Source: Xylanibacter ruminicola 23 (GTDB lineage: Bacteria > Bacteroidota > Bacteroidia > Bacteroidales > Bacteroidaceae). Taken from it: 32,000 nt of DNA. A model generated the notes under the pieces. The model saw nothing but the letters and a program-made list of their open reading frames with translations, did no database searches and was not told where the DNA came from. Position 1 is the stretch's first letter. Each line of letters opens with the position of its first letter. The translations under genes and the position numbers were made by a program. Location of the stretch: the NCBI RefSeq assembly GCF_000025925.1, contig NC_014033.1:840001-872000 (forward strand), read 5' to 3'. Of the stretch, positions 1-13,001 are shown in pieces.

Positions 1-776
1 TTAGGGTTCTTCCACATGTAACGCAAGCGTACACCCGATTCAACCTTGTTCACGTTCTGACCACCGGCACCACTCGAACGGAAGGTATCCCACTTGATCT
101 CACCCTCGTTCACGTGTACCTCAAACTTGTCGGCCTCGGGCAGCACGGCTACTGTGGCAGCACTGGTCTGCATACGTCCGTTGCTCTCGGTCACTGGCAC
201 ACGCTGCACGCGGTGTACACCACTCTCGTACTTCAGTGTACCGTAAACGTCGGCACCTGTTACCGAGAAGTCAACCTCCTTAAATCCGCCCACGGCACCT
301 TCAGATACGTAGGTAATCGATACCTGCCAGCCCTTCGACTCGCAGTAGTTCTTGTACATCTTAAACAGGTCGCCAGCAAACAGGGCAGCCTCGTCGCCAC
401 CTGTTCCTGCACGTATCTCCATTTCTACGTTCTTGGCATCTTCTGGGTCTTTCGGTATCAGTGCAATCTTAATTTCCTCCTCCAGCTGTGGCTGTAACTC
501 CTCGTTTATAGCCAGCTCCTCGCGTGCCATCTCCTTCATCTCAGGGTCGGTCTCGTTAGCCAGAATGTCCTTAGCCTCCTTAATACCGTTCAAGCACGCA
601 ATATAACGTTTGCGGGCGTCCATAATATCGCCCAGGTCCTTGTATTCCTTAGTCAGTTTAACGAATCTCTGCTGGTCGGCAATCACGGCGGGGTCGGTAA
701 TCAGGGTCGAAACCTCCTCGAATCGTGCCTCCAGTCCATCTAATTTTTGAAGAATGCTGTTACTTGTTTCTGCCAT
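1..776 (-). CDS. prfA: peptide chain release factor 1, N-terminal ~258 codons (C-terminus continues beyond window start)
   Basis: The minus-strand frame is open from ATG (776-774) to the window edge. It is absent from the ORF track because no stop lies in the window. Hand translation: MAETSNSILQKLDGLEARFEEV..., RVQRVPVTESNGRMQTSAATVAVLPE (RF1-type P-x-T tripeptide), FRSSGAGGQNVNKVESGVRL (GGQ motif). Confidence 0.88.
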   Translation of the reverse strand, partial: MAETSNSILQKLDGLEARFEEVSTLITDPAVIADQQRFVKLTKEYKDLGDIMDARKRYIACLNGIKEAKDILANETDPEMKEMAREELAINEELQPQLEEEIKIALIPKDPEDAKNVEMEIRAGTGGDEAALFAGDLFKMYKNYCESKGWQVSITYVSEGAVGGFKEVDFSVTGADVYGTLKYESGVHRVQRVPVTESNGRMQTSAATVAVLPEADKFEVHVNEGEIKWDTFRSSGAGGQNVNKVESGVRLRYMWKNP

Positions 777-804
777 CTTATTTATATATATTATATTTGG
801 GCGG

Positions 805-812
805 CAAAGTTA
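805..812 (-). promoter_or_regulatory. Bacteroidetes-type -7 promoter box (TAACTTTG) for prfA
   Basis: Plus-strand caaagtta equals TAACTTTG on the minus strand, ~30 nt upstream of the prfA ATG. It matches the TAnnTTTG consensus of Bacteroides primary-sigma promoters. Confidence 0.55.
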
Positions 813-876
813 CAAAAAAATGCGAAGATTTCAAAATATTTTTGGGTTTTAATGTTGTTTTTCTGTTTTTTATCGC

Positions 877-884
877 TATCTTTG
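877..884 (+). promoter_or_regulatory. Bacteroidetes-type -7 promoter box (TATCTTTG) for the histidine kinase gene
   Basis: TATCTTTG lies 10 nt upstream of ATG 894. Its position argues against the upstream start at 747 given in the ORF track. Confidence 0.55.
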
Positions 885-893
885 TGCCCAAAA

Positions 894-2954
894 ATGTACC
901 AACATATGTCATTACTTAAAAAAACTTTTCAGTTTTCATGGATAGGCCTAGTAGCAACCGTGATGCTTCTCTCATCGTGTGACAATGCTCAGCAGAGTCA
1001 TGATTTGGAATTCGATCGTGTGCATAACATCATGCGATATTCTGATTCCATCCCTCGTACCGTCGATAGTTTGATGGCGCTGGGTGAAATCAATCAGATG
1101 TGTGCCGACTTTTATAATATGTCGTATTACATGAGCCCGAATGTAAATCGTTCCAGTGCGATTGCTGATAGCGCCTTGATGCGTCCTGTCGTCACAGAAC
1201 AGGATCGCTTCTATCACTTCCTGATAGCAGCCAATAACTCAGAGCTGGAATACACGAGTCGCCACTACGAGTCGGGCTTGCGAAAGGCTCAGCAGTTGGT
1301 CAACAGTGTTGATACCAGTTTTATCAATCGCCACTATCTGCTGCAAACGGGCTATCTGTTGGCCTATAGCAATCTGGCACTTAGCTATATCCATCTGGAA
1401 CGTTCAGCCGAGGGTGAAAAGTACATGCAGCAGGTGATGAAGCTGATTGATCAGTTTGAAAAAACGTCTGTAAACGACTCTGTTGCACAGCATAATTGGG
1501 CGGCTAAACGTACGCAATTCGCCGTTGCCGCTATGATTTCTTATTGTAATATGCGCCAATGGGATGGGGCAGAGGCCTGGATGAATCGTGCCGAAAAATA
1601 TCTTCAGAATATGGCGGATAATCCTCGTGTCGATAAGTCGCATTACCCCATATTCTGCTATCAGGTTAGTTGTGTCAAATCCTTTATCCTCGAAAAGGCA
1701 GGCCATCATCAGGAGGCTGCTCAGGCCTATGACGATTTTATGAAGAATCCCTTGTCAAAATCAGTGGTTGCTCGTATCAATTCGGTTTCATATCTCAATA
1801 GTAGTCATCGCTATGAGGAGGCCGAGCGTAATATCAATGATGTTGAAACTGTGATGGGACAGTTGGGCATGAAGATGGATCTTGAGACACTTAACGGTAT
1901 TGTTAAGTTAAAGTTCGATGCCCATTTGGGTGCAGGTCATCGCGACTCTGCCCTTGCTGTAGCTACACGCATTCTTGACAGACTCGATTCGGCTGAGGTA
2001 TGGCAGAGACGTGACAAGACAGCCGAGTTGGCTACCATCTATGATATGAGTAAGAAGGATGCCGAGATTGCCGAAAAAGAGGCTAAGATCAACCAGATGC
2101 GCATAGTTGTACTGTTGATAGTGATTGTGCTGCTTTTGGTGTTCTTCTTTATTTATGCCTTCACTCGTCGTCGTGCGGCTGCCAGCCTGAACCAGAAGAA
2201 CGAGCAGCTGTTGATAGCCAATGCCCGTGCCGAGGAAGCATCGCGCATGAAGACCAGGTTTATCCAGCAGATTTCGCACGAGTTCCGTACCCCTCTGAAT
2301 GTGCTTTCGGGTTTTGCTCAGGTGCTCACGGATTCGGATGCCTATCTCGACGAGAGTTTGCGTCAGGATGCCAATCGCCAGATTCTCGAAAATACCAACC
2401 GCATTACCAACCTGGTTAATAAGATGCTGGAGCTGTCGGATGTGAGCAGTCGTACGGTCATCGATCTTACCGATCAGGTTTCAGTTGAACAGATAGCCAC
2501 CGATGCCATCGACGCTTCGGGTATAGACGATGCCGATCATTTAGTGTTCGAGATGCAGGCTGGCGACGAGGCTTCGTCGGTGCGCATCACCACCAATAAG
2601 CGTGCAGCTGTTCGTGCGCTCGCGCTGTTGCTCGATAATGCACGCAAGTTCACGGCACCAGCCGAGGCCTATGGTCATCATGATGCTGCTGATAAGAAAC
2701 AGCGTGCCGTCTTGAAGGTAAGCATTACCGATACGCTTGTGCAGTTCATCGTCGAAGATACAGGTATGGGTGTTCCTGCCAATCAGGCTGAGCGCATCTT
2801 TGATGAGTTTGTGCAGCTCGATGAGTATTATGATGGTACGGGTATCGGACTCACGGTAGCCCGCAGTTTTGCCCGTCGTTTGGGTGGTGATGTGAAGCTC
2901 GACACCACTTATATCGCTGGTGCCCGCTTTGTGATGACGCTTCCAAGAAAATAA
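894..2954 (+). CDS. membrane sensor histidine kinase with large N-terminal TPR-like extracytoplasmic domain; no receiver domain and no adjacent response regulator
   Basis: ORF track 747..2954. I prefer ATG 894 (or 906) because 747-893 overlaps the prfA start and both promoter boxes. Signal/lipobox-like MYQHMSLLKK...VMLLSSCDN; TM segment VVLLIVIVLLLVFFFIYAF; H-box FIQQISHEFRTPLN; N-box LLDNARKF; G1 VEDTGMGV; G2 GTGIGLTVAR. Confidence 0.85.
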   Translation: MYQHMSLLKKTFQFSWIGLVATVMLLSSCDNAQQSHDLEFDRVHNIMRYSDSIPRTVDSLMALGEINQMCADFYNMSYYMSPNVNRSSAIADSALMRPVVTEQDRFYHFLIAANNSELEYTSRHYESGLRKAQQLVNSVDTSFINRHYLLQTGYLLAYSNLALSYIHLERSAEGEKYMQQVMKLIDQFEKTSVNDSVAQHNWAAKRTQFAVAAMISYCNMRQWDGAEAWMNRAEKYLQNMADNPRVDKSHYPIFCYQVSCVKSFILEKAGHHQEAAQAYDDFMKNPLSKSVVARINSVSYLNSSHRYEEAERNINDVETVMGQLGMKMDLETLNGIVKLKFDAHLGAGHRDSALAVATRILDRLDSAEVWQRRDKTAELATIYDMSKKDAEIAEKEAKINQMRIVVLLIVIVLLLVFFFIYAFTRRRAAASLNQKNEQLLIANARAEEASRMKTRFIQQISHEFRTPLNVLSGFAQVLTDSDAYLDESLRQDANRQILENTNRITNLVNKMLELSDVSSRTVIDLTDQVSVEQIATDAIDASGIDDADHLVFEMQAGDEASSVRITTNKRAAVRALALLLDNARKFTAPAEAYGHHDAADKKQRAVLKVSITDTLVQFIVEDTGMGVPANQAERIFDEFVQLDEYYDGTGIGLTVARSFARRLGGDVKLDTTYIAGARFVMTLPRK

Positions 2955-2963
2955 CCAAAAATA

Positions 2964-3003
2964 AAGTGGCAGTGAGAATTACCTCGCTGCCACTTTGTTT
3001 TTC
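2964..3003. terminator. bidirectional intrinsic terminator between the convergent kinase and GG-peptide genes
   Basis: 13-bp stem aagtggcagtgag (2964-2976) / ctcgctgccactt (2983-2995) with one G-U pair and a 6-nt loop. T-runs follow on both strands (tgttttt on plus, tattttt on minus). Confidence 0.7.
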
Positions 3004-3025
3004 TTGCAGTTTTTTACATTCTACT

Positions 3026-3232
3026 TTACTTCTTGTTATTCATCTTATTCTTGATTGCATTAATCAGAGAATTAAGCAGAGATGTAGAAGTATTTGTATC
3101 CTGATTACCATTTGTACCTGTTGTAGTGATCAGTGTAGTGGTAGGTATCAAATTCATAACACCACCAGGTAACAGTATCCATCCGTCACCACCTTTAACA
3201 GCCTTGAGCTGCGCTCTTTCTAATTGTTTCAT
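3026..3232 (-). CDS. double-glycine (GG) leader peptide precursor, 68 aa; predicted 15-aa leader plus 53-aa Cys-free core
   Basis: MKQLERAQLKAVKGG|DGWILLPGGVMNL... Hydrophobic residues at -4 (V), -7 (L), -12 (L) and -15 (M) from the GG fit the bacteriocin-type leader. The gene has its own -7 box and terminator and is divergent from a C39-peptidase ABC exporter. Confidence 0.75.
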   Translation of the reverse strand: MKQLERAQLKAVKGGDGWILLPGGVMNLIPTTTLITTTGTNGNQDTNTSTSLLNSLINAIKNKMNNKK

Positions 3233-3301
3233 AATTGTTGATTTAATTAAATTTGTAATTGTACTTTTGAATTATTTGATAATAGTTTTTTAATTTCTTG
3301 G

Positions 3302-3309
3302 CAAATGTA
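3302..3309 (-). promoter_or_regulatory. -7 promoter box (TACATTTG) for the GG-peptide gene
   Basis: Plus-strand caaatgta equals TACATTTG on the minus strand, ~70 nt upstream of the peptide ATG (3232), in a very AT-rich divergent intergenic region. Confidence 0.5.
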
Positions 3310-3423
3310 AGCAAAATAATTTGGATGACGATAATAATAGCTGTTTTAATTAACATAGTTTAAATAAATATTAACTGAATGTTAACAAACTTGAAGTTAT
3401 TGTTTTATTTGCCATTTTCTTGC

Positions 3424-3431
3424 TAACTTTG
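3424..3431 (+). promoter_or_regulatory. -7 promoter box (TAACTTTG) for the PCAT-HlyD operon
   Basis: TAACTTTG lies 28 nt upstream of ATG 3459. Confidence 0.55.
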
Positions 3432-3458
3432 TGGCCAGATTGCTAAAAAACAAGGTAA

Positions 3459-5675
3459 ATGAATAAACCATTCCCAATATTCACTCAACACGATGTGATG
3501 GAATGTGGCCCAACCTGCTTACGCATGGTGATGGCCTATTATGGGCGCAACTATCCGCTGGAACGGTTGCGCGATATGTGTCATATACAGCGCGATGGCG
3601 TGTCGCTGCTCGGTGTTGCTGAGGCTGCCGAGCAGTTAGGCATGCATACCACAGGCGTGAAAGCTACGCTGCAACAGTTGGTCGACGAGGTTCCACTTCC
3701 GTGTATCCTGCATTGGAATCAGGGGCATTTTGTAGTGCTCTACGAGGTGAAGCGTACCAAAGAGGGGCTACAGTTCAAGGTGGCCGATCCCGTAGGTCAG
3801 CGCATCACCTATACCGAGCGCGAGTTTCTGCGCTACTGGGCTTCGGATACCGAAGAAGGACAGCCCGCTGGTATCGCCCTGATGCTGGAACCAACACCCG
3901 ATTTCAATCGCGACGAGTATGTCGAGGATGATAGCGACCGCAAGGCCCGTAAGCGCAGCCTCATGCTGTTGCTGTCGTATATGCGACCTTATAAGAAGCT
4001 CATCGCGCAGCTGTTCTTAGGGCTCACGGTGGTCTCGCTGCTGCAACTGGTACTGCCGTTCCTCACGCAGGCTATCGTCGATTTCGGTATCTCGCGCCAG
4101 GACCTCGGTTTCATCGTCCTGGTACTTATTGCGCAGCTGATGCTCATGATAGGTAGCACCTCGGTACAGTTCATCCAGAGTTGGATACTGCTTCATGTTT
4201 CTACGCGCGTAAACCTGTCGCTCTTGTCCGACTATCTGGCCAAGCTGATGCGCTTGCCTTTCAGCTATTTCGATACGCGCCTTACAGGTGATATCCTGCA
4301 GCGTATCGACGATCACGACCGTATCCAGACGTTCCTCACGGGTAGCAGCCTATCGCTGATACTCTCGCTGTTCAATATCGTGGTGTTCGGTGCCGTTATC
4401 CTCATTTACGACTGGCGCATCTTCTTTATCTTCATGCTGGGCAGTGCGCTCTATGTGCTCTGGGTACTGCTGTTCATGCGCCGTCGTGCCAAGCTCGATA
4501 CCAAGTTGTTCGCCCAGAACGCGGCCAATCAGAGTAAGATTGTGCAACTTATCGACGGTATTCAGGAGATTAAACTCAACACCTGCGAGCAGCAGAAACG
4601 CTGGGAGTGGGAGCGTGTGCAGGCGCGCATTTTCCGCCTCAATATCAAGAGCCTGGCGCTCAATCAGTATCAGGAATCGGGTGCCACGTTCATCAACGAG
4701 GTGAAGAATCTGGTTATCACGGCGCTGGTGGCCATGCTGGTACTTCGTGGCGATATGACACTCGGTATGATGCTGTCGGTGCAGTATATCATCGGTAGTC
4801 TGAATGGTCCAGTCAATCAACTGGTCGATTTCATCCATCGCTATCAGGATGCCCGCCTCAGTCTGGAGCGTCTGCAGGAGGTGTACGAGAAGGACGACGA
4901 GGTGCAGCCCGATCGCCAGCTTATCAGCCAGGTGAGCGGCGATGGTGATATCCTGATCAAGAATCTTACCTACCGTTACGATAAACTGAACGACAAACCT
5001 ACACTCGACCATATTGATGTGGTGATACCTCACGGCAAGACTACGGCGATTGTCGGACTGAGTGGTAGTGGTAAGACCACGCTGCTCAAGATGATTCTCG
5101 GCTTCTATAAGCCCGATGCCGGCGAGGTGGTGATAGGCTCGTCGGATCTGGAAAACTACGACAAGCGTGCATGGCGCAGGCATTGTGGTGTGGTAATGCA
5201 GGATGGTTTTATCTATTCCGACACCATCGCCCGCAATATCGCTGCCGGTTTCGAGGTGATTGATACCGAGCGACTGGTGCAGGCAGCCCGCGTGGCCGAG
5301 ATCGACGATTATATCCGCCAGTTGCCGCTGGGTTATAACACCAAGATTGGTGCCGAGGGCAGTGGCTTGAGTCAGGGTCAGAAGCAGCGCATCCTGATAG
5401 CCCGTGCCGTGTATAAGAATCCCGACTACGTGTTCTTCGACGAGGCTACCAACTCGCTCGATGCGCAGAACGAGCATGCCATCATCCAGAATCTGGCCGA
5501 CTTCCTGCATAATCGTACATCGCTCATCATTGCCCACCGACTCAGTACGGTGGTTGATGCCGACAATATCCTGGTGATGAGCGAGGGGCGCATTGTCGAG
5601 TCGGGTAATCACGCCCAGCTGTTAGAGCGTCGCGGCATCTATTACGAACTGGTAAAGAACCAACTGAATGTTTAG
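3459..5675 (+). CDS. peptidase-C39-domain ABC transporter (PCAT; GG-leader peptide cleavage/export ATPase-permease)
   Basis: 738 aa. N-terminal C39 motifs: Q10, MECGPTCL (catalytic Cys16 context), WNQGHFVVL (His), VADP (Asp). Six-TM ABC membrane domain. Walker A GLSGSGKTT, signature LSQGQKQR, Walker B VFFDEATNSLD, H-loop IIAHRLS. Confidence 0.92.
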   Translation: MNKPFPIFTQHDVMECGPTCLRMVMAYYGRNYPLERLRDMCHIQRDGVSLLGVAEAAEQLGMHTTGVKATLQQLVDEVPLPCILHWNQGHFVVLYEVKRTKEGLQFKVADPVGQRITYTEREFLRYWASDTEEGQPAGIALMLEPTPDFNRDEYVEDDSDRKARKRSLMLLLSYMRPYKKLIAQLFLGLTVVSLLQLVLPFLTQAIVDFGISRQDLGFIVLVLIAQLMLMIGSTSVQFIQSWILLHVSTRVNLSLLSDYLAKLMRLPFSYFDTRLTGDILQRIDDHDRIQTFLTGSSLSLILSLFNIVVFGAVILIYDWRIFFIFMLGSALYVLWVLLFMRRRAKLDTKLFAQNAANQSKIVQLIDGIQEIKLNTCEQQKRWEWERVQARIFRLNIKSLALNQYQESGATFINEVKNLVITALVAMLVLRGDMTLGMMLSVQYIIGSLNGPVNQLVDFIHRYQDARLSLERLQEVYEKDDEVQPDRQLISQVSGDGDILIKNLTYRYDKLNDKPTLDHIDVVIPHGKTTAIVGLSGSGKTTLLKMILGFYKPDAGEVVIGSSDLENYDKRAWRRHCGVVMQDGFIYSDTIARNIAAGFEVIDTERLVQAARVAEIDDYIRQLPLGYNTKIGAEGSGLSQGQKQRILIARAVYKNPDYVFFDEATNSLDAQNEHAIIQNLADFLHNRTSLIIAHRLSTVVDADNILVMSEGRIVESGNHAQLLERRGIYYELVKNQLNV

Positions 5676-5681
5676 CAGAAA

Positions 5682-6968
5682 ATGATGGAAGAAGATAGAA
5701 TCGAACTACATAGCGACGAGGTACAGGACATCATCTCGCGTCCGCCATCGTCGTTGATAAAATATGGTATTACAGTCATTGCCGCTGTGGTGGCGCTGGT
5801 TGTCATTGGCAGTTTTATTTTCCGTTATCCCGATGTGGTGCAGGGTAGGGTGGTAGTCACGGGCGATACCCCTCCCAATCGTATTGTGGCCCGTGCCGAT
5901 GGTCGTTTGCAGGAGCTTCGCCTGGCCGATGGTCAGCAGGTGTCAAAAGGCGCCATCATCGCTGTGGTCGAGAATACCGCCAATACCGATGATGTGGTAA
6001 GTGTGAAACAGGCCGTCGGTAAGCTGTCGGTTAGTGGCGAGCCCATCCCCTTCGCTGCCGATCAGTCGTTGCGCCTGGGTGTGGTGCAGGATGCCTATAA
6101 TCAGTTCTGCGATGCCGTCGTCAGTTACAATCAGGCCGTTCGCCTCAATATCTATCGCCAGCAGATACTGTCGGCACAGAAGGAGCATGCCTCGTTGTTG
6201 CGCCACGAAAGTAATCTCAAACGTCAGCTCGAAATGAGCCAGCAGCAAGCCGATCTGGTCAAGCACGATCGCGATCGCGAAAAAAGCCTGCACGAACGCA
6301 AGCTCACTTCCGATGCTGAAATGGAGCAGAGTCAGCGCTCGTTGATCTCGGCCCAGCTCTCCGTCGAGCAGGTACGTACCGACATCTCGCAAACCCAACT
6401 CAGCATTGCCCAGATAGATAATCGTCTGGCCGAGCTTCAGGTGCAGTACCAGCAGGATATGCAGCATGTTACGGCCACGCTGCAGTCGGCGCTCAACACC
6501 CTCAAGGTGGCCATCGGTCAGTGGGAGCATCTCTATGCCCTTGTGGCCCCAGCATCCGGCAAACTGTCGTACACCAATGTGTGGGCGGTCAATCAGAATA
6601 TCACTACAGGTCAGCATATCTTCTCCGTTGTCGAGTCGCGCAAATCATGCTTTGTGGGTAAGGTTCTTCTGCCAGCCACAGGCTTCGGTAAGGTCAAGGA
6701 GGGCCAGCGTGTAAACATCATGCTCGATGGCTATCCCTATCTCGAGTTCGGCTATCTGCGTGGCACGGTAAGCGGTCTTTCAGCAGTCGCCAATCAGGAT
6801 GTGTATGTGGCCACCATCACACTGCCACAGGGCCTGCATACCACCGTTGGACGTGAACTACGGTTCACTGGCGAGTTGAGTGGCCAGGCCGAGGTCATCA
6901 CCGAGGATATCAGCCTTGCCGTCCGCATCATCCAACCCCTGCGGTACATCTTCCATCACAACGTATAA
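5682..6968 (+). CDS. HlyD-family periplasmic adaptor / secretion protein partnered with the PCAT
   Basis: 428 aa, starting 6 nt after the PCAT stop. Single N-terminal TM (YGITVIAAVVALVVIGSFIF), a lipoyl-like hairpin segment, a long coiled-coil region (QQILSAQKEH...LAELQVQYQQ) and a C-terminal beta-barrel-like part. This is the typical order for bacteriocin ABC accessory proteins. Confidence 0.85.
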   Translation: MMEEDRIELHSDEVQDIISRPPSSLIKYGITVIAAVVALVVIGSFIFRYPDVVQGRVVVTGDTPPNRIVARADGRLQELRLADGQQVSKGAIIAVVENTANTDDVVSVKQAVGKLSVSGEPIPFAADQSLRLGVVQDAYNQFCDAVVSYNQAVRLNIYRQQILSAQKEHASLLRHESNLKRQLEMSQQQADLVKHDRDREKSLHERKLTSDAEMEQSQRSLISAQLSVEQVRTDISQTQLSIAQIDNRLAELQVQYQQDMQHVTATLQSALNTLKVAIGQWEHLYALVAPASGKLSYTNVWAVNQNITTGQHIFSVVESRKSCFVGKVLLPATGFGKVKEGQRVNIMLDGYPYLEFGYLRGTVSGLSAVANQDVYVATITLPQGLHTTVGRELRFTGELSGQAEVITEDISLAVRIIQPLRYIFHHNV

Positions 6969-6975
6969 AACGAAA

Positions 6976-7016
6976 AACAGAGGGTGCCCAGTTGGACATC
7001 CTCTGTTTCTTTTGTT
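6976..7016 (+). terminator. intrinsic terminator of the PCAT-HlyD operon
   Basis: Stem aacagagggtg (6976-6986) / catcctctgtt (6997-7007) with a 10-nt loop, followed by tcttttgtt. Confidence 0.7.
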
Positions 7017-7116
7017 AATACCCCATACACGAGGTGGCTCCCAATGCCGTCACTATCGCCGTCGCGATCGATGCTATCATCTGCACGATAAACTTAAATG
7101 TTTCTTTCTTTGTCAT
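7015..7116 (-). CDS. 33-aa small membrane/lipoprotein-like peptide downstream of the HU-like gene (resembles the Bacteroidales 'smalltalk protein' class)
   Basis: Hand-translated and below the ORF-track size cutoff: MTKKETFKFIVQMIASIATAIVTALGATSCMGY. The ATG lies 17 nt after the HU-like stop. The basic N-terminus, hydrophobic helix and C-terminal ..SC.. are, as I recall, typical of small ORFs paired with HU-like genes in Bacteroides. Not verified. Confidence 0.5.
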   Translation of the reverse strand: MTKKETFKFIVQMIASIATAIVTALGATSCMGY

Positions 7117-7136
7117 AATTTAATGTTTAATGTTTA
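7117..7136 (-). repeat. short tandem heptamer repeat (TAAACAT on the gene-sense strand) at the HU-like stop / small-ORF start junction
   Basis: Sense (minus) strand reads GAT TAA ACA TTA AAC ATT AAA TT ATG. This is the same heptamer family as at 14500-14527 and 17311-17373. Confidence 0.7.
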
Positions 7137-7688
7137 ATCTCCGATTGGCTCATTGCTGTGACCGCCGCCTCCGGTATTACCACCAGTGTTTCCACCGGTA
7201 TTACCGCCCTGGCTGCTACCACCACCGCCACTGTTACTTGGTTTATCCTCCTCCTCGGTCAGCTGTCCAGCAAATGTCTCTGCATTCACAAACTCCGCCT
7301 TCTTGATAAACTCTCTGCTCGAGATGTTGGTCTCAGCCTCCTGGTCGGGTAGGAACCTAATGTGCAGGGCCTTCAGGTTCTTGGCTGGCGAGAAATCCTC
7401 CTTCTTCAGGGCTCCACCTTTCTCGTTCTCGATGGTGGTGAAGAAGATGCCCAGACCGTCGATCTTTACTCGTTTCGAGTTCAGGAGCATTTCCAGCAGA
7501 CAGCTTCTGAATTTCTCCAGCACTCCGAATACCACGTCTGGGGTGTAGATGCTTCCGTGTTCCGAGATGTGGTTGGCCATCTTGCGGGTGTTCAGTGTTT
7601 CGATGGTTTTTCCGTGGGCAAACCACTTACCGTAAATCTTCGAGTTCTTGATGTTGTTCTGCTTCAACAGATAAAAAATCTTTGCCAT
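7134..7688 (-). CDS. Bacteroidetes HU-like (HU_HIG-type) DNA-binding protein with Gly/Asn/Thr-rich repetitive C-terminal tail
   Basis: 184 aa. MAKIFYLLKQNNIKNSKIYGKWFAH...MANHISEHGSIYTPDVVFGVLEKF...KIDGLGIF is typical of the Bacteroides 'putative DNA-binding protein, histone-like' family. The tail SGGGGSSQGGNTGGNTGGNTGGGGH is encoded by 12-nt repeats at ~7160-7215. Confidence 0.8.
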   Translation of the reverse strand: MAKIFYLLKQNNIKNSKIYGKWFAHGKTIETLNTRKMANHISEHGSIYTPDVVFGVLEKFRSCLLEMLLNSKRVKIDGLGIFFTTIENEKGGALKKEDFSPAKNLKALHIRFLPDQEAETNISSREFIKKAEFVNAETFAGQLTEEEDKPSNSGGGGSSQGGNTGGNTGGNTGGGGHSNEPIGD

Positions 7689-7780
7689 AATGTTGTGTGT
7701 TTTAATTTTAAAATGGTTAATAACTAAGTGTTGTTTGTGTCTCTCAAAAGTTTTGCGCGCTTTGTTTTTGATTAACGATG

Positions 7781-7788
7781 CAAAGGTA
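7781..7788 (-). promoter_or_regulatory. -7 promoter box (TACCTTTG) for the HU-like gene
   Basis: Plus-strand caaaggta equals TACCTTTG on the minus strand, ~90 nt upstream of ATG 7688. Confidence 0.5.
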
Positions 7789-7876
7789 CAAAAAATATTT
7801 CAAACTACCAAATATTTTAGCCACTTTTTTATCAAAAAGCAAAAATATTTTGGTTATCCATTTCGTACGCCAAGAA

Positions 7877-7905
7877 CCGTAATTTTTTCGCCTCAAAAAT
7901 TACGG
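7877..7905. repeat. perfect 11-bp stem hairpin (ccgtaattttt / aaaaattacgg) with 7-nt loop
   Basis: Read directly: 7877-7887 is the reverse complement of 7895-7905. It lies in non-coding DNA at the left edge of the AT-rich island. Confidence 0.8.
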
Positions 7906-7948
7906 ATTTCGCTCAAATAAGTATAACCTCGTCTGCTATGCTCACCTC

Positions 7949-8145
7949 CACACCGCACGCCGCACGCCGCAACTTTTCCGTACTTCACACTCGCAGCATT
8001 TTGTCTTTAGAATATTATATATTATTATATATATTATAATATATATAATAATATATAATATTTATAATACTAATTAATCCACATCCACCATCGCACCCCT
8101 CCACACCGCAAAACCAAAAAGTTGCGGCGTGCGGCGTGCGGTGTG
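7949..8145. repeat. 197-bp element: perfect 29-bp GC-rich terminal inverted repeats enclosing a perfect 52-bp pure-A/T palindrome
   Basis: 7949-7977 cacaccgcacgccgcacgccgcaactttt is the exact reverse complement of 8117-8145. 8011-8062 is a perfect palindrome of A/T only, checked base by base, with its centre at 8036/8037. An extra 13-bp direct copy cctccacaccgca occurs at 7945-7957 and 8098-8110. Confidence 0.9.
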
Positions 8146-8162
8146 ATGCTATCACCACTACA

Positions 8163-8213
8163 TGCATTTTAGCGGAGTTTAGAGGCTCGTTTTTTGCATT
8201 TTAGCGGAGTTTA
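8163..8213. repeat. 19-bp direct repeat x2 (tgcattttagcggagttta), 32-bp period
   Basis: Copies at 8163-8181 and 8195-8213 are identical, and the region is non-coding. Confidence 0.85.
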
Positions 8214-8404
8214 CAAGCCTAAGCCAAAAACAAATGTTAGGTTTATTCGTATTAAAAAACAATTGATTAATACCATAGACGAAAAGTTCTCCAAAGGCTT
8301 AGATAGTAGCTGGTGATTGGCTACCCAAAAGCAACCAGAAAGAATGTGGCTCTGGCCTTAGGCGGTATCAGTAGGATCGGTTCTCTTTATCAGAAATAGG
8401 CGAG

Positions 8405-8477
8405 TATTCCCTCATAAAATTGGCAAGAAGTGGTAGTTATTCCCTCATAAAATTGTCGCGACAGTGGCGCGACAATT
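8405..8477. repeat. 18-bp direct repeat x2 (tattccctcataaaattg, 33-bp period) running into a 10-bp-stem hairpin
   Basis: Copies at 8405-8422 and 8438-8455. The hairpin is aattgtcgcg (8451-8460) / cgcgacaatt (8468-8477) with a 7-nt loop. Confidence 0.85.
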
Positions 8478-8617
8478 ACAAGAAGAATTCGGCCGGAAAG
8501 GATTTGATGAGAAAAGTATCCTTTGAGGACAAGGAATTAAACGAGACAGTGGTTGTTCGGAAATTCCGAACTACCACTCAACATGGAGCTATAGAGGGGA
8601 AAACTGTACTACCCTAG
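8420..8617 (+). pseudogene. remnant of a RhuM/Fic-associated N-terminal-domain type gene (only ~35 recognisable codons)
   Basis: The ORF tail ...VSFEDKELNETVVVRKFRTTTQHGAIEGKTVLP* resembles the conserved ..IFEEGEL.E.SVVRKFRTTAADGK.Y.. block of RhuM-family proteins (from memory). The rest of that ~330-aa family is missing, and the 5' part of the ORF is made of the direct repeats. Confidence 0.4.
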
Positions 8618-8741
8618 AAAAAGTTGAATGGATTTTACCTTACCCCTGCCAAAAGCTGAATCATTCTCTCTAAACCCTTGTTTTTTGTTGAAAGACGATT
8701 ATTTTTATTCTTAGTTTTTTCTTTATTTCACTTATTTGGTG

Positions 8742-8749
8742 TATCTTTG
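8742..8749 (+). promoter_or_regulatory. -7 promoter box (TATCTTTG) upstream of the metallophosphoesterase gene
   Basis: TATCTTTG lies inside the 5' end of track ORF 8678..9559, 25 nt upstream of the in-frame GTG at 8774. Confidence 0.45.
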
Positions 8750-8773
8750 CATGCAATAATACAAATAAAAATA

Positions 8774-9559
8774 GTGAACAGAAACTGCAATATAGTAGAA
8801 TACCCTCGCGCCAAGAAAATCGTAGTTAGTGGCGATATTCATGGTGATTTTACTCAGCTCGTATTTAAGTGCTGCGTACAGTATGAAATGACCGATACAC
8901 TTATCATTGTAGCTGGTGATTGTGGATTCGGTTTTGAAAGGCCCGGCTATTATGAGGCTGTTTACAATCGTTGTCGCGACCGGCTTTCAAAATCCAATAA
9001 CTGGATAGTTTTTATAAGAGGAAATCATGATAATCCAGCTTATTTTAATAGACTACCAATCAAACACCAACGCTGGCGTACGTTATGTGATTATTCGGTA
9101 ATTAAGGCTTGTGGTCATACGATTCTTTGTGTAGGTGGTGCAACATCCATCGACAGAACTCTTCGTATGGCTTCTAATAAATTTCATTTGCCCAATCCAA
9201 ATGATCCTCTTTTGCCAAATGTTTATTGGTCAAATGAACTCCCTGAATTTAACAAGGAGAAGCTTAATAAAATTGATCAGCAATGCGCTGTCGATACCAT
9301 AATTACCCATACTTCACCATCGTTCTGTGAATTATCATCACACCATTTCTTGGAAAGCTGGGCTGAGCATGATGTAGATTTGTTGGACGACGTAAGGTAT
9401 GAGCGCCAGGTGATGGACGATATCTATAGTTATCTTTATAGCAAGAATCATCCTTTAAGATATTGGTATTACGGACATTTCCATGAGAGCTGGCATGCCG
9501 AAATAGATCAGGTAAGATACCACATGCTCGATATAATGGAGTTAAGAGAGATTCTTTAA
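8774..9559 (+). CDS. calcineurin-like metallophosphoesterase (stand-alone, ~262 aa from GTG 8774; the open frame extends to TTG 8678)
   Basis: Complete MPE motif set in order: VVSGDIHGDF, VAGDCGFG, IRGNHDNP, VGGATSIDR, ITHTSP, YYGHFH. The start is uncertain. There is no in-frame ATG before the first motif, and the F/L-rich 8678-8773 stretch may be T-rich promoter DNA or a signal peptide. Confidence 0.8.
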   Translation: MNRNCNIVEYPRAKKIVVSGDIHGDFTQLVFKCCVQYEMTDTLIIVAGDCGFGFERPGYYEAVYNRCRDRLSKSNNWIVFIRGNHDNPAYFNRLPIKHQRWRTLCDYSVIKACGHTILCVGGATSIDRTLRMASNKFHLPNPNDPLLPNVYWSNELPEFNKEKLNKIDQQCAVDTIITHTSPSFCELSSHHFLESWAEHDVDLLDDVRYERQVMDDIYSYLYSKNHPLRYWYYGHFHESWHAEIDQVRYHMLDIMELREIL

Positions 9560-9609
9560 GAAATATGAGTTTTTTCTAGCTAATTATTTGTTACATCGCT
9601 TTTTATTTG

Positions 9610-9617
9610 TATCTTTG
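9610..9617 (+). promoter_or_regulatory. -7 promoter box (TATCTTTG) for the 204-aa PD-(D/E)xK-signature gene
   Basis: TTTGTATCTTTGCA context, 21 nt upstream of ATG 9638. It is nearly identical to the box before the preceding gene. Confidence 0.5.
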
Positions 9618-9637
9618 CAATTGTAAATGAATCAACT

Positions 9638-10252
9638 ATGTCTGAAGAGAATTTAACGGAAGGTTATTCTATATTAGAGGAGACTTGCATGTTGGTATGC
9701 GAGCCTCCATATCAAAATCTTGATACGTTATTGGAAGATTTGCCCAATTTTAGTGGAGCTGGTTTTTATACTCAACTACGACGCATTGCTGAACATCCAG
9801 CATTCGAACCAGTTGAGAATGAAGAGAAGATCTTTAGCGCTGCGGGTGATACATGTGATGACTATCAGAATTTGATTAATGCAGCAAGGAAAGCTGTTGA
9901 GCATGGTTATCGTGTTTTTATATTGCCAAATCCAAAGAGGTTTAGAACGCCTGACTTTATTTTTGAACGCAAGGGTGTATATAAACTGTTTGATTTAAAA
10001 ACCATTTCGGGATCGAACTCGGTTGATAATCGTTTAAAAGAATCTGTTGGTCAAACTAACCGTGTGTTGCTTCATATGGTTTCTAATTATGAACCTCGTC
10101 CATTGGCTAAGAGTATAAAGCATTACTTCGAACTGAATCCTGAAGCAATAGAGGTTCTTGTAATAAAAGGAAAGAAATTTATCTCTATTGTTCGCAAAGA
10201 CACATTAGGCGAATCATATATCAAATACTTTATGGTGAAATATACAAAATAA
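9638..10252 (+). CDS. hypothetical 204-aa protein: acidic N-terminal half plus C-terminal PD-(D/E)xK (restriction-endonuclease-fold) signature
   Basis: HGYRVFILPNPKRFRTP(105)D(106)FIFERKGVYKLFD(119)LK(121)TISGS...GQTNRVLLHM gives PD-x12-DxK spacing. It has its own promoter box and a strong terminator immediately after the stop. Any family assignment (small REase-fold toxin / CdiA-CT-tRNase-like) is from memory only. Confidence 0.75.
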   Translation: MSEENLTEGYSILEETCMLVCEPPYQNLDTLLEDLPNFSGAGFYTQLRRIAEHPAFEPVENEEKIFSAAGDTCDDYQNLINAARKAVEHGYRVFILPNPKRFRTPDFIFERKGVYKLFDLKTISGSNSVDNRLKESVGQTNRVLLHMVSNYEPRPLAKSIKHYFELNPEAIEVLVIKGKKFISIVRKDTLGESYIKYFMVKYTK

Positions 10253-10277
10253 AAAACCACCCCGGAAGGTGGTTTTT
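10252..10277. terminator. bidirectional intrinsic terminator (aaaaaccacc-ccggaa-ggtggttttt)
   Basis: Perfect 10-bp stem 10252-10261 / 10268-10277 with a 6-nt loop, and an A-run and T-run on either side so it can terminate both strands. It overlaps the stop codon of the 204-aa gene. Confidence 0.8.
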
Positions 10278-10347
10278 AAATGGGCAGTATCGATAAAGCC
10301 TTGCCCCTCGCGGGATTCTACCCGGATAGCCAAAACAGATGTTCTGA
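10253..10347 (-). ncRNA. candidate ~95-nt small RNA (orphan promoter-to-terminator unit with no ORF)
   Basis: A minus-strand TATCTTTG box (10353-10360) is followed ~75 nt later by the terminator hairpin and T-run. The interval has local stems (cccGCGAggg with a GNRA loop; gggca...tgccc) and a tRNA-3'-end-like string gggtagaatcccgcgaggggca, but no cloverleaf and no plausible CDS. Confidence 0.25.
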
Positions 10348-10352
10348 CGGTG

Positions 10353-10360
10353 CAAAGATA
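10353..10360 (-). promoter_or_regulatory. -7 promoter box (TATCTTTG) on the minus strand with no downstream gene
   Basis: Plus-strand caaagata equals TATCTTTG on the minus strand, facing the terminator at 10252-10277. Confidence 0.45.
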
Positions 10361-10435
10361 AAAACATTTTCAATAAGTTCCAAATATTTTGGGATTTTTT
10401 TTTTAGTAGAAGTGATTTTATATAAGAAATCTTTG

Positions 10436-10443
10436 TATATTTG
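10436..10443 (+). promoter_or_regulatory. -7 promoter box (TATATTTG) before decayed coding remnants
   Basis: TATATTTG lies 21 nt upstream of ATG 10464, which opens only a 17-codon ORF (MKIEQIYEVIAKEGFPL*). Confidence 0.4.
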
Positions 10444-10463
10444 CACCCAAAAGAACTATCAAA

Positions 10464-11057
10464 ATGAAAATAGAGCAGATATACGAGGTTATTGCCAAGG
10501 AGGGCTTTCCGCTCTAACATTGCAAACTATTGATAACTGTATAAAGGAGATACAAGATGGGACAGAAGATTTTCCTAGATTTAATCTATCAGAGCATGCA
10601 GGACTCTGCACAGCAGGTGCGCCGCTCATTGGGGCGTCCATCATCGCGAGCTACGCGACAGCAAGCATTACGTCAAGTAGCCATGCTGAAGGCTGCGAAG
10701 GAAGCCCAGCAAACTGGCAAATAGATGAGTGCTAAGAAAAACTGATTGAACAATGGGCCAGGGCTGCCAATCTGTGGGAGGATGACTCTGAACAGATTCT
10801 TGTCGCCATGGGTAAAGTATACTGCTGATGCCGAAGTGATTGCTGAGTCAAAAAGAAGAGATTTCACAGGTATGTATGCACTCTATGATGGTTGTATCAT
10901 AATAAACGAAGATTGGTGGGAATATATCCAGGAACACTTTGATGAATTATGCGTTTTTGCCACGCAGTCGTTCTTTGACTACGTCAAACAATACAATGAC
11001 GCTATGAAACTCCTGAGATTTAGAACAACAGGGTTTAGTTTTATTGGAAAACTATAG
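10464..11057 (+). pseudogene. multi-frame coding remnants of an unidentified gene (frameshifted / stop-interrupted)
   Basis: Protein-like stretches occur in three frames. MKIEQIYEVIAKEGFPL* (10464-). MGQKIFLDLIYQSMQDSAQQVRRSLGRPSSRATRQQALRQVAMLKAAKEAQQTGK* (10557-10724). ..EKLIEQWARAANLWEDDSEQILVAMGKVYC*. Then ..YTADAEVIAESKRRDFTGMYALYDGCIIINEDWWEYIQEHFDELCVFATQSFFDYVKQYNDAMKLLRF.. up to 11057. I recognise no family. Confidence 0.3.
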
Positions 11058-11065
11058 AATAATAA

Positions 11066-11566
11066 GGCCATTCATCAAAGCCGCGTAATCGCAATATTGC
11101 TAATGCATTCTTCAAGGCTGGTTTTATCGATACTTGGGGACGTGGTTTCCAAAAAATTCAAGACGGATTTGAACCAGCAGGAATTCCTATGCCTAAGGTT
11201 GAGAATTTCTGCGGAGGAGTGAGGGTAACAATACAGCGAACCAAGTTCATGCAGATGATGAATGTCACTAGTGATGTCACTAGTAATGTCGTAAGTGATG
11301 TCACTAGTAATGTCGTAAGTGATGTCAGTAGTTCTGTCGGTAGTTTGTCGGTAGTGCAACTTACTGATAGACAGAAGAAAATACGCGAATTGATACTGAA
11401 GGATTCTTTTATTTCAGCACAGCAAATGTCAGTAGTTCTGTCAGTAGTTACACGAACTATATGGCGTGATCTTGCAGACTTGCAAAAGAAGGGGGTTTTG
11501 ATTCGTGAGGGCAACACAAGTGCTGGTCATTGGCTTTGGGTTGGTCCTATAGTAGATAATAAATAA
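11066..11566 (+). pseudogene. 5'-truncated C-terminal fragment of an AlbA_2/HATPase_c_4-type ('RecG-like') putative transcriptional regulator
   Basis: The frame is open from the stop at 11063-11065 and has no start. ..KPRNRNIANAFFKAGFIDTWGRGFQKIQDGFEPAGIPMPKVENFCGGVRVTIQR.. matches the conserved ..RN..IA.AF...G.IE.WG.GI..I......G.P.P.F....G.F.V.. block. It is followed by a low-complexity repeat and a wHTH-like tail (LTDRQKKIRELILKD..ISAQQMS....VTRTIWRDLADLQKKGVLIREG). The N-terminal ~300 aa of such proteins are missing. Confidence 0.6.
11273..11338 (+). repeat. 24-bp tandem coding repeat (gatgtcactagtaatgtcgtaagt x2 plus partial copies) inside the regulator fragment
   Basis: 11273-11296 and 11297-11320 are identical and encode DVTSNVVS, with degenerate copies on both sides. 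The same repeat explains the repetitive antisense ORFs 11075..11359 and 11158..11517. Confidence 0.85.
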
Positions 11567-11591
11567 GTAAAAGGCAATTAAAGAATAGCTT

Positions 11592-11779
11592 ATGTCAAAA
11601 TTTAACGAACACAGCTTGGAAATGACCATCATAGAGCTGTTCTGCTGGATTACGCGGTTGAGAGCGGTCAGGACTTTGACGAGCTACTGATTGAGAAGAA
11701 TCGCTATGGTGCCATGTGGCTGCACTTTGCGGTAAGGCCGAAAGATAATCGGCACAAAATACTATTTATTAATGCATAA
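11592..11779 (+). pseudogene. possible remnant of a type I restriction enzyme R-subunit (HsdR) gene: N-terminal ~17 codons fused out of frame to a short unrelated/C-terminal piece
   Basis: ATG 11592 gives MSKFNEHSLEMTIIELF.., which resembles the ..FNE.SLE.AIIELF.. N-terminus of many HsdR proteins (from memory). The frame then collapses with a stop at 11688-11690. A second frame reads LLDYAVESGQDFDELLIEKNRYGAMWLHFAVRPKDNRHKILFINA* up to 11779. Confidence 0.35.
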
Positions 11780-11784
11780 AAAAA

Positions 11785-11818
11785 CAGCGGAGGGCATTGT
11801 GCTCTCCGCTGCGTTTTT
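11785..11818. terminator. bidirectional intrinsic terminator at the island / purM boundary
   Basis: Stem cagcggagggc (11785-11795) / gctctccgctg (11801-11811) with one G-U pair and a 5-nt loop. It is flanked by an A7 run upstream and cgttttta downstream, and it lies 17 nt past the purM stop on the minus strand. Confidence 0.75.
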
Positions 11819-11834
11819 ATAGATGTAAATAAAA

Positions 11835-13001
11835 TTACTCGTAATCGAATGTACCGAACTCGCTCTTGATGTTGAGGCTCTTCTTGCCTTCCTCGATATG
11901 TCCTACTACCTGAGCATCGATGTTGAAGCTCTTTGAGAGGGCGATGACCTGATCGGCAACCTCGGGACGTACGTAGATTTCCATGCGGTGACCCATGTTG
12001 AATACCTGGTACATCTCCTTCCAATCGGTACCTGAGCACTCGTGGATGGCACGGAACAATGGGGGTACAGGGAACATGTTGTCCTTGACGACGCGGCAGT
12101 TGTCGTTCACGAAGTGGAGCACCTTGGTCTGGGCGCCGCCTGTGCAGTGTACCATACCGTGGATTTCGGGACGGAGCTCGTCGAGCAGTTTCTTGATAAC
12201 TGGTGCGTAGGTGCGGGTGGGTGAGAGCACGAGCTGACCGGCATTAACGGGCGAACCTTCGACGGCATCGGTAAGCTTGTACTTACCGCTATACACGAGC
12301 TCGTCAGGGACAGCGTGATCGAAGCTCTCGGGATAGTTCTCGGCGAGATACTTGGCAAACACATCGTGACGGGCTGAGGTAAGACCGTTTGAACCCATAC
12401 CACCGTTGTAGCGCTTCTCGTAAGTGGCCTGACCGGTTGACGACAAACCAACGATGACATCGCCTGGGCGGATGTTGGCATTATCGATCACGTCGGCACG
12501 CTTCATGCGGCAGGTAACAGTGCTATCTACGATGATGGTGCGAACCAGGTCGCCTACATCGGCAGTCTCGCCACCAGTGGGGTAGATGCCGATACCCATT
12601 TCGCGGAGTTCGGCCAGCAGCTCGTCGGTACCATTGATAACGGCTGAGATAACCTCGCCAGGAATCAACATCTTGTTACGACCGATGGTGCTTGATACCA
12701 GGATGTTATCTACGGCGCCCACGCAAAGCAGGTCGTCGGTATTCATCACGATGGCATCCTGAGCGATACCTTTCCATACTGAGAGGTCGCCAGTTTCTTT
12801 CCAATACATGTAGGCGAGGGCCGACTTGGTGCCAGCGCCATCGGCATGCATGATGTTACAATACTCTGGGTCGCCCCCTAAGATGTCGGGGATAATCTTA
12901 CAGAAGGCCTGTGGGAAGATTCCCTTGTCAATGTTTTTGATAGCGTTGTGCACATCCTCCTTGGCAGCACTCACGCCTCGCATCATATATCTATTATCCA
13001 T
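11835..13001 (-). CDS. purM: phosphoribosylformylglycinamidine cyclo-ligase (AIR synthase family, long Bacteroidetes form)
   Basis: 388 aa. MHADGAGTKS.. (DG.GTK motif), a PurM-like N-terminal domain and a C-terminal AIR-synthase domain. It is the last gene of a tightly spaced minus-strand operon. Confidence 0.8.
   Translation of the reverse strand: MDNRYMMRGVSAAKEDVHNAIKNIDKGIFPQAFCKIIPDILGGDPEYCNIMHADGAGTKSALAYMYWKETGDLSVWKGIAQDAIVMNTDDLLCVGAVDNILVSSTIGRNKMLIPGEVISAVINGTDELLAELREMGIGIYPTGGETADVGDLVRTIIVDSTVTCRMKRADVIDNANIRPGDVIVGLSSTGQATYEKRYNGGMGSNGLTSARHDVFAKYLAENYPESFDHAVPDELVYSGKYKLTDAVEGSPVNAGQLVLSPTRTYAPVIKKLLDELRPEIHGMVHCTGGAQTKVLHFVNDNCRVVKDNMFPVPPLFRAIHECSGTDWKEMYQVFNMGHRMEIYVRPEVADQVIALSKSFNIDAQVVGHIEEGKKSLNIKSEFGTFDYE

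Follow-up and report, generated by a model that had tools for sequence, protein, structure and literature searches.

The 32,000-nucleotide (nt) stretch of Xylanibacter ruminicola 23 DNA considered here (the window; contig NC_014033.1, positions 840,001 to 872,000) contains a nuclease-type gene, open reading frame 2 (ORF2), that belongs to a two-part module. Its partner in that module is a small-RNA gene converging on it from the opposite strand, not the neighboring metallophosphoesterase (MPE) gene, ORF1. The reading in which we have fair confidence is that ORF2 and the minus-strand RNA form a self-contained cassette of a tRNase-type toxin and an RNA antidote, the MPE being an unrelated neighbor. 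The first-pass annotation of this DNA had seen the ORF pair and the terminator that follows it; what it missed was the conserved minus-strand small-RNA gene, at about 10246-10384, that reuses that terminator.

The small-RNA gene and its linkage to ORF2

The DNA at about 10273-10402, 3' of ORF2, matches the sequence downstream of nearly every ORF2 relative, and its conservation is above what is expected of an intergenic spacer (pairwise identity is 0.71 in the RNA core, 0.67 in the coding sequence and 0.56-0.59 in the flanks). Read on the minus strand, a consensus promoter is followed by a conserved core of about 75 nt and then by the ORF2-terminating hairpin with a T-run that overlaps the ORF2 stop codon. 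The promoter (10353..10384, minus strand, directed towards ORF2) was identified by pattern match as TTTG, a 20-nt spacer and TATCTTTG, and its distance is unchanged in related loci as well as in the orphan copies described below. The hairpin terminator (10252..10277), common to the converging ORF2 mRNA and small RNA, has 11 pairs and a T-rich tail on the minus strand, the strand on which the terminator scan called it; the strong terminator previously reported at this position is real. A hairpin occupies the terminator position in all related loci and its sequence changes among them. The full-length transcript probably extends over roughly 100 nt, from about 10352 to about 10246.

The structured core (10276..10352, minus strand) comprises three helices, P1, P2 and P3, and scores 82.8 bits (E 5.4e-20) against our covariance model R1, which finds one copy only in the window. 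Judging from single-sequence folds, P1 has 8 base pairs (bp), reduced to 3 bp in a short variant, P2 has about 4 bp and a loop of very variable length, and P3 has about 7 bp closing a 12-nt loop with the conserved sequence AAGNC...AUCGAYAC. Because RNAalifold applied to the raw MAFFT alignment gave the structure in part only, the helix regions being misaligned, the helices were set by hand from single-sequence folds and then tested for covariation. In a sequence-only MAFFT alignment of 51 copies, 90.1% of the cells were paired, against 31-51% with slid partners; nine pairs had changed on both sides, and the observed values were reached in none of 500 shuffles. Alignment of 87 copies to R1, which leans towards the model, gave 92.0% paired and ten pairs with compensatory changes (116 cells), and the slid controls across both alignments gave 31-55% paired. 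The loci come from related rumen bacteria, and the covariation counts are inflated by shared descent; that the slid controls are low and that so many distinct pair types occur speaks against an artefact. Frequent G-U pairs are compatible with the minus strand only. There is no conserved reading frame in the RNA, since helix and loop lengths differ by non-multiples of three (1, 2, 8 or 20-35 nt), and the transcript predicted in the window has no AUG.

A search of Rfam 15 with the window gave no match at gathering score. Membership in a known RNA family was considered and rejected, a permissive scan (E up to 10) having returned only sub-threshold matches, such as RNAI and STnc370, that were due to the terminator hairpin. 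We also considered by eye the possibility that P3 mimics a tRNA acceptor stem and saw nothing in support of it. On this comparative evidence we regard the minus-strand structured RNA gene as real and absent from Rfam.

The linkage between this RNA and ORF2 is close to invariable. Among 81 genome loci, all from rumen Bacteroidales, 80 had an R1 match on the minus strand 22-120 nt past the end of the ORF2 match, and the exception was a truncated ORF2 match. This fixed spacing is kept despite protein identities of 46-64% and unrelated flanks; the other neighbors of ORF2 vary while the RNA stays. No conserved ORF was found downstream of free-standing ORF2, in the slot of an immunity-protein gene, among the loci compared. 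The reverse test started from a 22-nt pattern drawn from the RNA alone, and hence covers the RNA subtypes that match one pattern; it was run on metagenome contigs, counting copies for which 700 bp or more was available on the relevant side. Among the matches listed, 55 of 85 RNA copies (65%) converge on an ORF2 relative and 30 do not. These 30 orphans, again among the matches listed, are full-length and have both promoter and terminator; four of them (L192, L198, L139 and L180) still lie beside the last 20 or so codons of a lost ORF2 gene, and no second conserved protein partner was found for them. The protein is thus almost never without the RNA and the RNA is often without the protein, which is the asymmetry typical of a toxin and its antidote.

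Toxin and RNA also occur in tandem. Locus L060 (9211-10998) has a frameshifted, an intact and a truncated copy of the toxin gene, each with its RNA, and L037 (10001-11575) has two intact units; these arrays suggest duplication and decay of cassettes in place. The RNA family has at least 123 pattern matches in rumen metagenome contigs, and R1 gave 87 model matches in the 91 sources searched, most of them genome loci. A side observation is that a NUDIX (MutT-like) gene recurs beside the RNA element: an orphan RNA converges on such a gene in L172 and L186, and one follows the cassette in L016. There is also a protein, P0242, in which NUDIX and ORF2 are fused, possibly through an annotation or frameshift artefact.

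ORF2 and its phage-borne relatives

ORF2 (9638..10252, plus strand) encodes a free-standing PD-(D/E)XK toxin domain of the CdiA_C family, 204 amino acids (aa) long, from an ATG start and with its own promoter (9587..9617, plus strand), a pattern match of Bacteroidetes type with TTTG, a 19-nt spacer and TATCTTTG. The protein matches the Pfam family CdiA_C (PF18451) over aa 104-177 with 28.1 bits against a cut-off of 26.6, and the same precomputed match is present on many of its relatives. The first-pass annotation had recognized a restriction-endonuclease fold from the signature P105-D106...D119-L-K121. The fold holds up, on the strength of the Pfam match, the structural matches and the catalytic residues; the signature stands in part, as D106, D119, L120 and K121 (together with E110) are invariant in an alignment of 42 relatives, but P105 is not conserved and is mostly alanine in the family. 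An AlphaFold2 model (predicted local distance difference test score, pLDDT, 83.6; predicted template modeling score, pTM, 0.78) is disordered only in the acidic residues 1-21, leaving a folded unit of about aa 25-204. The Foldseek comparison of this model with the PDB that had been suggested earlier has now been run, and it returned the PD-(D/E)XK fold: the top match was the CdiA-CT toxin of Burkholderia pseudomallei 1026b (4g6v_A, E 2.4e-4), followed by Hjc, RecU and HincII, all of them PD-(D/E)XK nucleases. A PDB sequence search with the ORF2 profile gave only spurious L23 matches (E about 0.02).

We conclude from the sequence that ORF2 is a PD-(D/E)XK protein of toxin type with its catalytic residues intact, and the modeled structure places RNA-cutting toxins, not restriction enzymes, as its nearest relatives. 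The characterized members of PF18451, CdiA-CTII of Bp1026b and SitA3, are tRNases (PMC9990079); by analogy, tRNase activity and toxicity are predicted for ORF2. The ORF2 family has 2944 matches, nearly all of about 204 aa and unnamed; its members come mainly from rumen Prevotellaceae and other Bacteroidales, and a single genome often holds several of them. The window ORF2 has no N-terminal delivery or trafficking domain, just a disordered N-terminus of about 25 aa.

The domain has a second life in phages. A profile search of 1.84 billion representative proteins returned 533 ORF2 relatives, many of which are long proteins with the ORF2 unit (about residue 25 to 204) as their C-terminus. Six of the ten long relatives scanned have the Pfam domain Phage_Mu_F at the N-terminus, and the genes for such fusions follow Mu-type portal genes in Mu-like phage modules. 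These Phage_Mu_F-ORF2 fusions are MuF polymorphic toxins. There is precedent for this, as the CdiA-CT 1026b domain is among the toxin domains described for MuF proteins, and 89% of MuF toxins were reported to be followed by a small ORF presumed to confer immunity (Jamet et al. 2017, PMC5576092). In our phage sample of nine loci, R1 matches lie directly after the MuF-toxin gene and converge on it in L222 (43.8 bits), L223 (27.5) and L221 (21.0), and in L220 a divergent copy of the RNA, with promoter and terminator, was seen by eye after the MuF-toxin gene; promoter and terminator are visible in each of the copies in L220-L223. Three IMG/VR phage contigs (L224-L226) gave R1 matches of 33-45 bits, and two more distant contigs have weak matches at the same spot. 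These IMG/VR MuF contigs were found with a narrow profile built on the MuF C-terminal alignment; searches of IMG/VR with the RNA pattern and with the close-family ORF2 profile gave no matches. Since the RNA lies beside both the free-standing and the MuF-fused toxin, the sequences indicate that toxin domain and RNA make up a single cassette, which moves between the two architectures of the protein as well as from phage to chromosome or back.

Two further features of the long relatives are worth recording. In P0260 and P0297 (from L221 and L223) an intein (Hint / Intein_splicing) lies in the MuF part, upstream of the toxin domain. In P0243 (818 aa) the ORF2 unit is C-terminal to a region of 600 aa that lacks a MuF domain and any Pfam match, which may represent a third delivery or sensor architecture for the toxin domain.

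The metallophosphoesterase and the surrounding DNA

The first-pass annotation had taken ORF1 and ORF2 to be a candidate two-gene defence or toxin module, with the MPE and the nuclease as sensor and effector or as toxin and modulator. There is something to recommend this idea. ORF calling and translation agree with the earlier description of two intact ORFs on the plus strand (ORF1 at 8678..9559 and ORF2 at 9638..10252), with 78 bp and no terminator between them, and both families are found beside restriction-modification and other defence-type genes. The two families do not, however, occur together elsewhere, an outcome that by the first-pass annotation's own standard refutes the module. No ORF1 relative was found within 10 kb on either side of an ORF2 relative (tblastn, E 1e-5) in any of the 80 genome loci examined with up to 10 kb of flank on each side, no ORF2 relative was found in nine ORF1 loci (L006-L014), and the covariance model R1 found the partner RNA in none of 14 ORF1 loci. 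The neighbors of both families are highly variable, and for ORF2 relatives even the commonest, an HU-like gene, is present in only seven loci. A syntenic locus, L001, has the same HU gene (92% amino acid identity) and its upstream DNA, and then an ORF2 relative with its RNA and no MPE; the distance from HU to ORF2 is about 900 bp there and 1930 bp in the window, where the stretch includes the MPE. Each of the two window ORFs, moreover, has a promoter box of its own. When the PADLOC-DB 2.0 models were run against ORF1 and ORF2, neither protein matched any family at E up to 1, in agreement with the earlier remark that the pair was not recognizable as a named system. We consider a selected MPE-nuclease module very improbable. 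The adjacency of the two genes is due to chance, and with this a false lead is removed.

ORF1 itself is best described as an independent neighbor (8774..9559, plus strand). Its start is most likely the GTG at 8774, giving 261 aa, and not the TTG at 8678, because its relatives are about 261 aa long and align from that point. The translation contains the complete calcineurin-like motif set that had been noted for it, all six of GDIHGD, GDCGFG, GNHD, GGATS, THTSP and GHFH, and it matches Pfam Metallophos (E 3.7e-7, 31.2 bits against a cut-off of 21.5) and the phage family phrog_1649 (E 8.6e-25); no PDB sequence match and no PADLOC match was found. Its relatives occur after a type I restriction-modification operon, before a KilA-N gene and an MmeI-type enzyme, beside a transposase, and, at the same chromosomal site, before YhcG and DUF4357, and distant ones (27-34% identity) are present in IMG/VR phage contigs. 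In L215 (1452-10478) a relative lies in a cluster of ADP-ribosylglycohydrolase, tyrosine-phosphatase, PP2C, NADAR, NUDIX and PARG genes; this is a conflict-type island of the NAD/ADP-ribose kind, and it hints that the MPE family acts on a nucleotide or on something related to ADP-ribose. ORF1 is a stand-alone gene and is not part of the ORF2 module.

The promoter contexts described earlier for the two ORFs are only partly alike. The boxes GGTGTATCTTTGCA (8738-8751, upstream of ORF1) and TTTGTATCTTTGCA (9606-9619, upstream of ORF2) are both present, and both end in TATCTTTGCA, which contains TAnnTTTG, the consensus of the Bacteroidetes -7 promoter box. The full pattern TTTG-N17-23-TAnnTTTG, which has six matches in the window against 0.53 expected (six being reached in none of 100 shuffles), is found at ORF2 (9587-9617, plus strand), at the HU gene (7781-7812, minus strand) and at the minus-strand site 10353-10384, but ORF1 has a -7 box only (8741-8748, plus strand).

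The surroundings had been called fragmentary and, as far as a loose check goes, this is so: neither 7689-8773 nor 10400-11834 contains a long ORF, and of the short ORFs tested within 8420-11566 none gave a Pfam match apart from one HTH_11 piece. A scan of the window for tRNA and tmRNA genes found none. Between the HU gene and ORF1, in the stretch missing from the syntenic locus L001, there is a perfect 29-nt inverted repeat (CACACCGCACGCCGCACGCCGCAACTTTT; 7949-8145) around a 139-nt spacer consisting of a long AT-only palindrome (8000-8073), which may be able to fold as a very large hairpin or cruciform, or may represent a small element that is mobile or serves recombination. Upstream of ORF1, where genes are sparse, there are also two pairs of short direct repeats at 8163-8218 and 8405-8455, namely TGCATTTTAGCGGAGTTTA (32-nt spacing) and TATTCCCTCATAAAATTG (exact, 33-nt spacing). 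On the other side, tandem 12-nt units (ATGTCACTAGTR; five to six copies, 11261-11345) lie within a plus-strand ORF (11189-11566) and encode a (V/S)TSD-type repeat at the N-terminal end of its 125-aa product, the C-terminus of which matches HTH_11 / DeoR HTH; from its sequence this ORF may be a variable or decayed regulator.

The HU-HIG family gene (7134-7688, minus strand; also L001 4551-5081) has a glycine-rich C-terminus encoded by repeats (12-nt repeats at 7168-7208). HU-like genes, with their seven loci, are the commonest neighbor family of the toxin-RNA cassette and may be a preferred insertion site for it. Short ORFs beyond the RNA promoter (about 10480-10735) share 80% protein identity over 50 aa with L029 7482-7771, which directly precedes a second, orphan RNA copy and a large ORF of 1139 aa; this may be a recurrent fragment that accompanies the cassette. 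Further upstream, a set of genes at 747-6968 encodes a hybrid histidine kinase (747-2954), a C39-peptidase ABC exporter (3459-5675) and an HlyD-family protein (5682-6968). This is a bacteriocin-type export set for which no obvious substrate gene was identified. A link between ORF2 and the C39 bacteriocin exporter and HlyD protein was rejected, as ORF2 relatives do not adjoin such exporters elsewhere.

A proposed toxin and RNA antidote

That the RNA serves as an antidote is something we infer, and our working model runs as follows. The RNA would be made constitutively and would neutralize the toxin; by the route that we favor, the folded RNA would bind the nuclease directly and act as a pseudo-substrate, in the manner of type III systems. 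Loss or decay of the RNA, for example upon shut-off of host transcription in infection, would free the RNase, which would cut tRNA or other RNA and stop growth. The free-standing cassette of the window would be an addiction or abortive-infection module, and stand-alone RNA copies would act as orphan immunity genes. The variable, defence-type gene settings of the related loci fit an addiction or abortive-infection role without proving it. Our reasoning in favor of direct binding is that: (i) the conserved part of the RNA is its structured core and not the overlap of about 30 nt with the ORF2 transcript; (ii) complementarity to the ORF2 mRNA is no higher for the core than for shuffled RNA (-44.8 versus -45.1 kcal/mol in a crude duplex test, which would leave room for a short antisense seed); (iii) orphan copies keep the core beside unrelated genes and (iv) in a prophage, a separately transcribed RNA that runs opposite to the late operon could, as we see it, protect the lysogen without blocking synthesis of head proteins.

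Several points weigh against this model. The CdiA_C match is only just over its cut-off, and identity to 4g6v is 17% with low template modeling (TM) scores (0.36 and 0.52), so the substrate could be tRNA, other RNA or DNA. ORF2 might also regulate itself through its conserved N-terminal part (aa 25-100). As all the genome loci are from rumen Bacteroidales, they are not fully independent samples. About one third of the RNA copies, among the matches listed, are without a toxin, and the RNA could have a role of its own. A single-copy, downstream and convergent RNA is unlike any known type III antitoxin. The toxicity of ORF2, the transcription of the RNA and its interaction with the protein are all predictions.

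The overlap of about 30 nt at the shared terminator also makes an antisense mechanism possible, resembling type I, in which the RNA would act on the ORF2 mRNA, the two transcripts pairing over the terminator and so causing mRNA decay or a block to translation, as happens with par/Fst of pAD1 and the Bacillus systems that overlap at the 3' end. The convergent layout, with one common hairpin terminator and the T-run of the RNA over the ORF2 stop codon, is the same in all loci, and protein toxins under antisense control are known, SymE and RalR being examples. We nevertheless think this mechanism unlikely. The overlap is short and is the least conserved part of the RNA, whereas the conserved structured core lies outside it, has no excess complementarity to the mRNA, with antisense pairing of the core giving no signal in our crude test, and is the same in orphan copies that lie beside unrelated converging genes; in phages, we would also expect that blocking a head-protein gene would hinder assembly. 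Slightly less likely still is a positive role for the RNA, as a cofactor, guide, substrate or scaffold without which the nuclease would not work, the two forming a ribonucleoprotein. An RNA-dependent enzyme would give the same asymmetry as a toxin and antidote, with the protein almost never found without the RNA, and free-standing and phage-fused forms alike retain the linkage. A guide, however, should have a variable single-stranded stretch, and here the variation falls in helix interiors and loops. In PMC9990079, CdiA-CT and SitA3 appear as tRNases that act alone, and toxins of this type are blocked by a partner immunity protein (the title of the 4g6v CdiA-CT/CdiI complex; general statements on polymorphic toxins in PMC5576092). 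An uninhibited intracellular tRNase would need an antidote, and no other candidate was seen near ORF2 and the RNA.

Two further explanations are, in our estimation, improbable. The link could be structural only, the RNA being an independent regulatory RNA or a mobile promoter-terminator unit along with which the toxin gene merely travels; in keeping with this, 35% of RNA copies, among the matches listed, are solitary and they occupy varied settings, for example converging on a NUDIX gene. The linkage, which has a constant spacing in 80 of 81 loci in the face of 46-64% protein identity and unrelated flanks, speaks against such a passive association, as do its retention in distant phage MuF fusions and the remains of a toxin gene beside four of the orphans. 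A shade more improbable is that ORF2 is a silent spare cassette for recombination into phage MuF toxin genes, as occurs in polymorphic toxin systems. The ORF2 unit is indeed a C-terminal module of MuF proteins, there are several copies per genome, and tandem arrays include decayed copies, but ORF2 has its own consensus promoter and an ATG, its relatives share a length of about 204 aa and a conserved start, and the catalytic residues are invariant across free-standing copies.

The cassette can be set beside several known systems. CdiA-CT(II) of Bp1026b with CdiI (4G6V), and SitA3, are the nearest on the protein side, sharing the same Pfam family at threshold, the best structural match and the PD-(D/E)XK core. 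ORF2 differs in being free-standing, without a delivery domain, in having the extra conserved N-terminal part (aa 25-100), in its 17% identity, and in having an RNA gene, not an immunity-protein gene, downstream. The MuF polymorphic toxins (PMC5576092) include ORF2 relatives as the C-terminal domain of Phage_Mu_F proteins beside Mu-type portal genes, whereas the window ORF2 has no MuF domain and lies outside a phage, and a converging structured RNA takes the place of the small downstream ORF. Polymorphic toxin systems are defined by a delivery domain and a downstream immunity-protein gene, and the window ORF2 has neither.

On the RNA side, the type III systems (ToxIN, CptIN and TenpIN) and RNA-regulated AbiF likewise have a likely endoribonuclease toxin beside a non-coding RNA, with inhibition by the RNA being, in our case, a prediction, and they too occur in defence islands and phages. 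Known type III antitoxins are tandem repeats located upstream of the toxin on the same strand, set apart from it by a terminator, and are processed by the toxin (see PMC12283969). Here there is a single structured RNA, downstream and convergent and with its own promoter, and the toxin has a different fold; within 7000-12000, tandem repeats are confined to the 12-nt units at 11261-11345 and 7168-7208, and neither set lies in or beside the ORF2/RNA module. Type I systems with a shared terminator (par/Fst of pAD1, txpA/RatA and bsrG/SR4) are alike in that the toxin mRNA and a small RNA converge, and a passage of PMC7472228 discusses this bidirectional layout. Type I toxins are small membrane peptides and their RNAs pair over long overlaps or repeats, whereas ORF2 is a 204-aa soluble enzyme fold and the conserved core of its RNA is, in the crude test, not complementary to the mRNA, the complementarity being confined to some 30 nt at the terminator. 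The stand-alone RNA copies (30 of the 85 among the matches listed) recall the stand-alone antidotes found as orphan immunity genes and in the acquired interbacterial defence clusters of Bacteroidales. The orphan immunity factors known to date are proteins, whereas the stand-alone copies here, with their predicted protective role, would be RNAs. As we reconstruct it, the cassette works like a toxin-antitoxin or toxin-immunity pair and fits the definition of none of the polymorphic, type III and type I systems, and our literature searches for this protein-RNA pairing found no description of it.

The toxin family, the MuF phage toxins and the principle of RNA antitoxins are already known. To our knowledge, though, every account of immunity to polymorphic toxins has so far credited proteins with it, and the RNA antitoxins that we know of are antisense RNAs or upstream repeat arrays. 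We put forward, as a tentative proposal in which our confidence is limited, that immunity to a polymorphic-toxin domain is conferred by a structured RNA: the Mu-like phages found in rumen Bacteroidales would encode a MuF tRNase toxin and, with it, the RNA antidote, and the bacteria would hold free-standing addiction or abortive-infection cassettes as well as orphan RNAs that protect against the phage-injected toxin. If true, RNA-based immunity would be described for the first time in a polymorphic toxin system, and RNA antitoxins would gain a new architecture, in which one folded RNA with its own transcription accompanies a tRNase domain and offers a new route to toxin neutralization. It would add a large RNA family to those in Rfam and would give a simple pair for the study of RNA-protein inhibition. 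It would also explain how a domain expected to be lethal can lie alone, without a partner protein, in thousands of Prevotellaceae loci.

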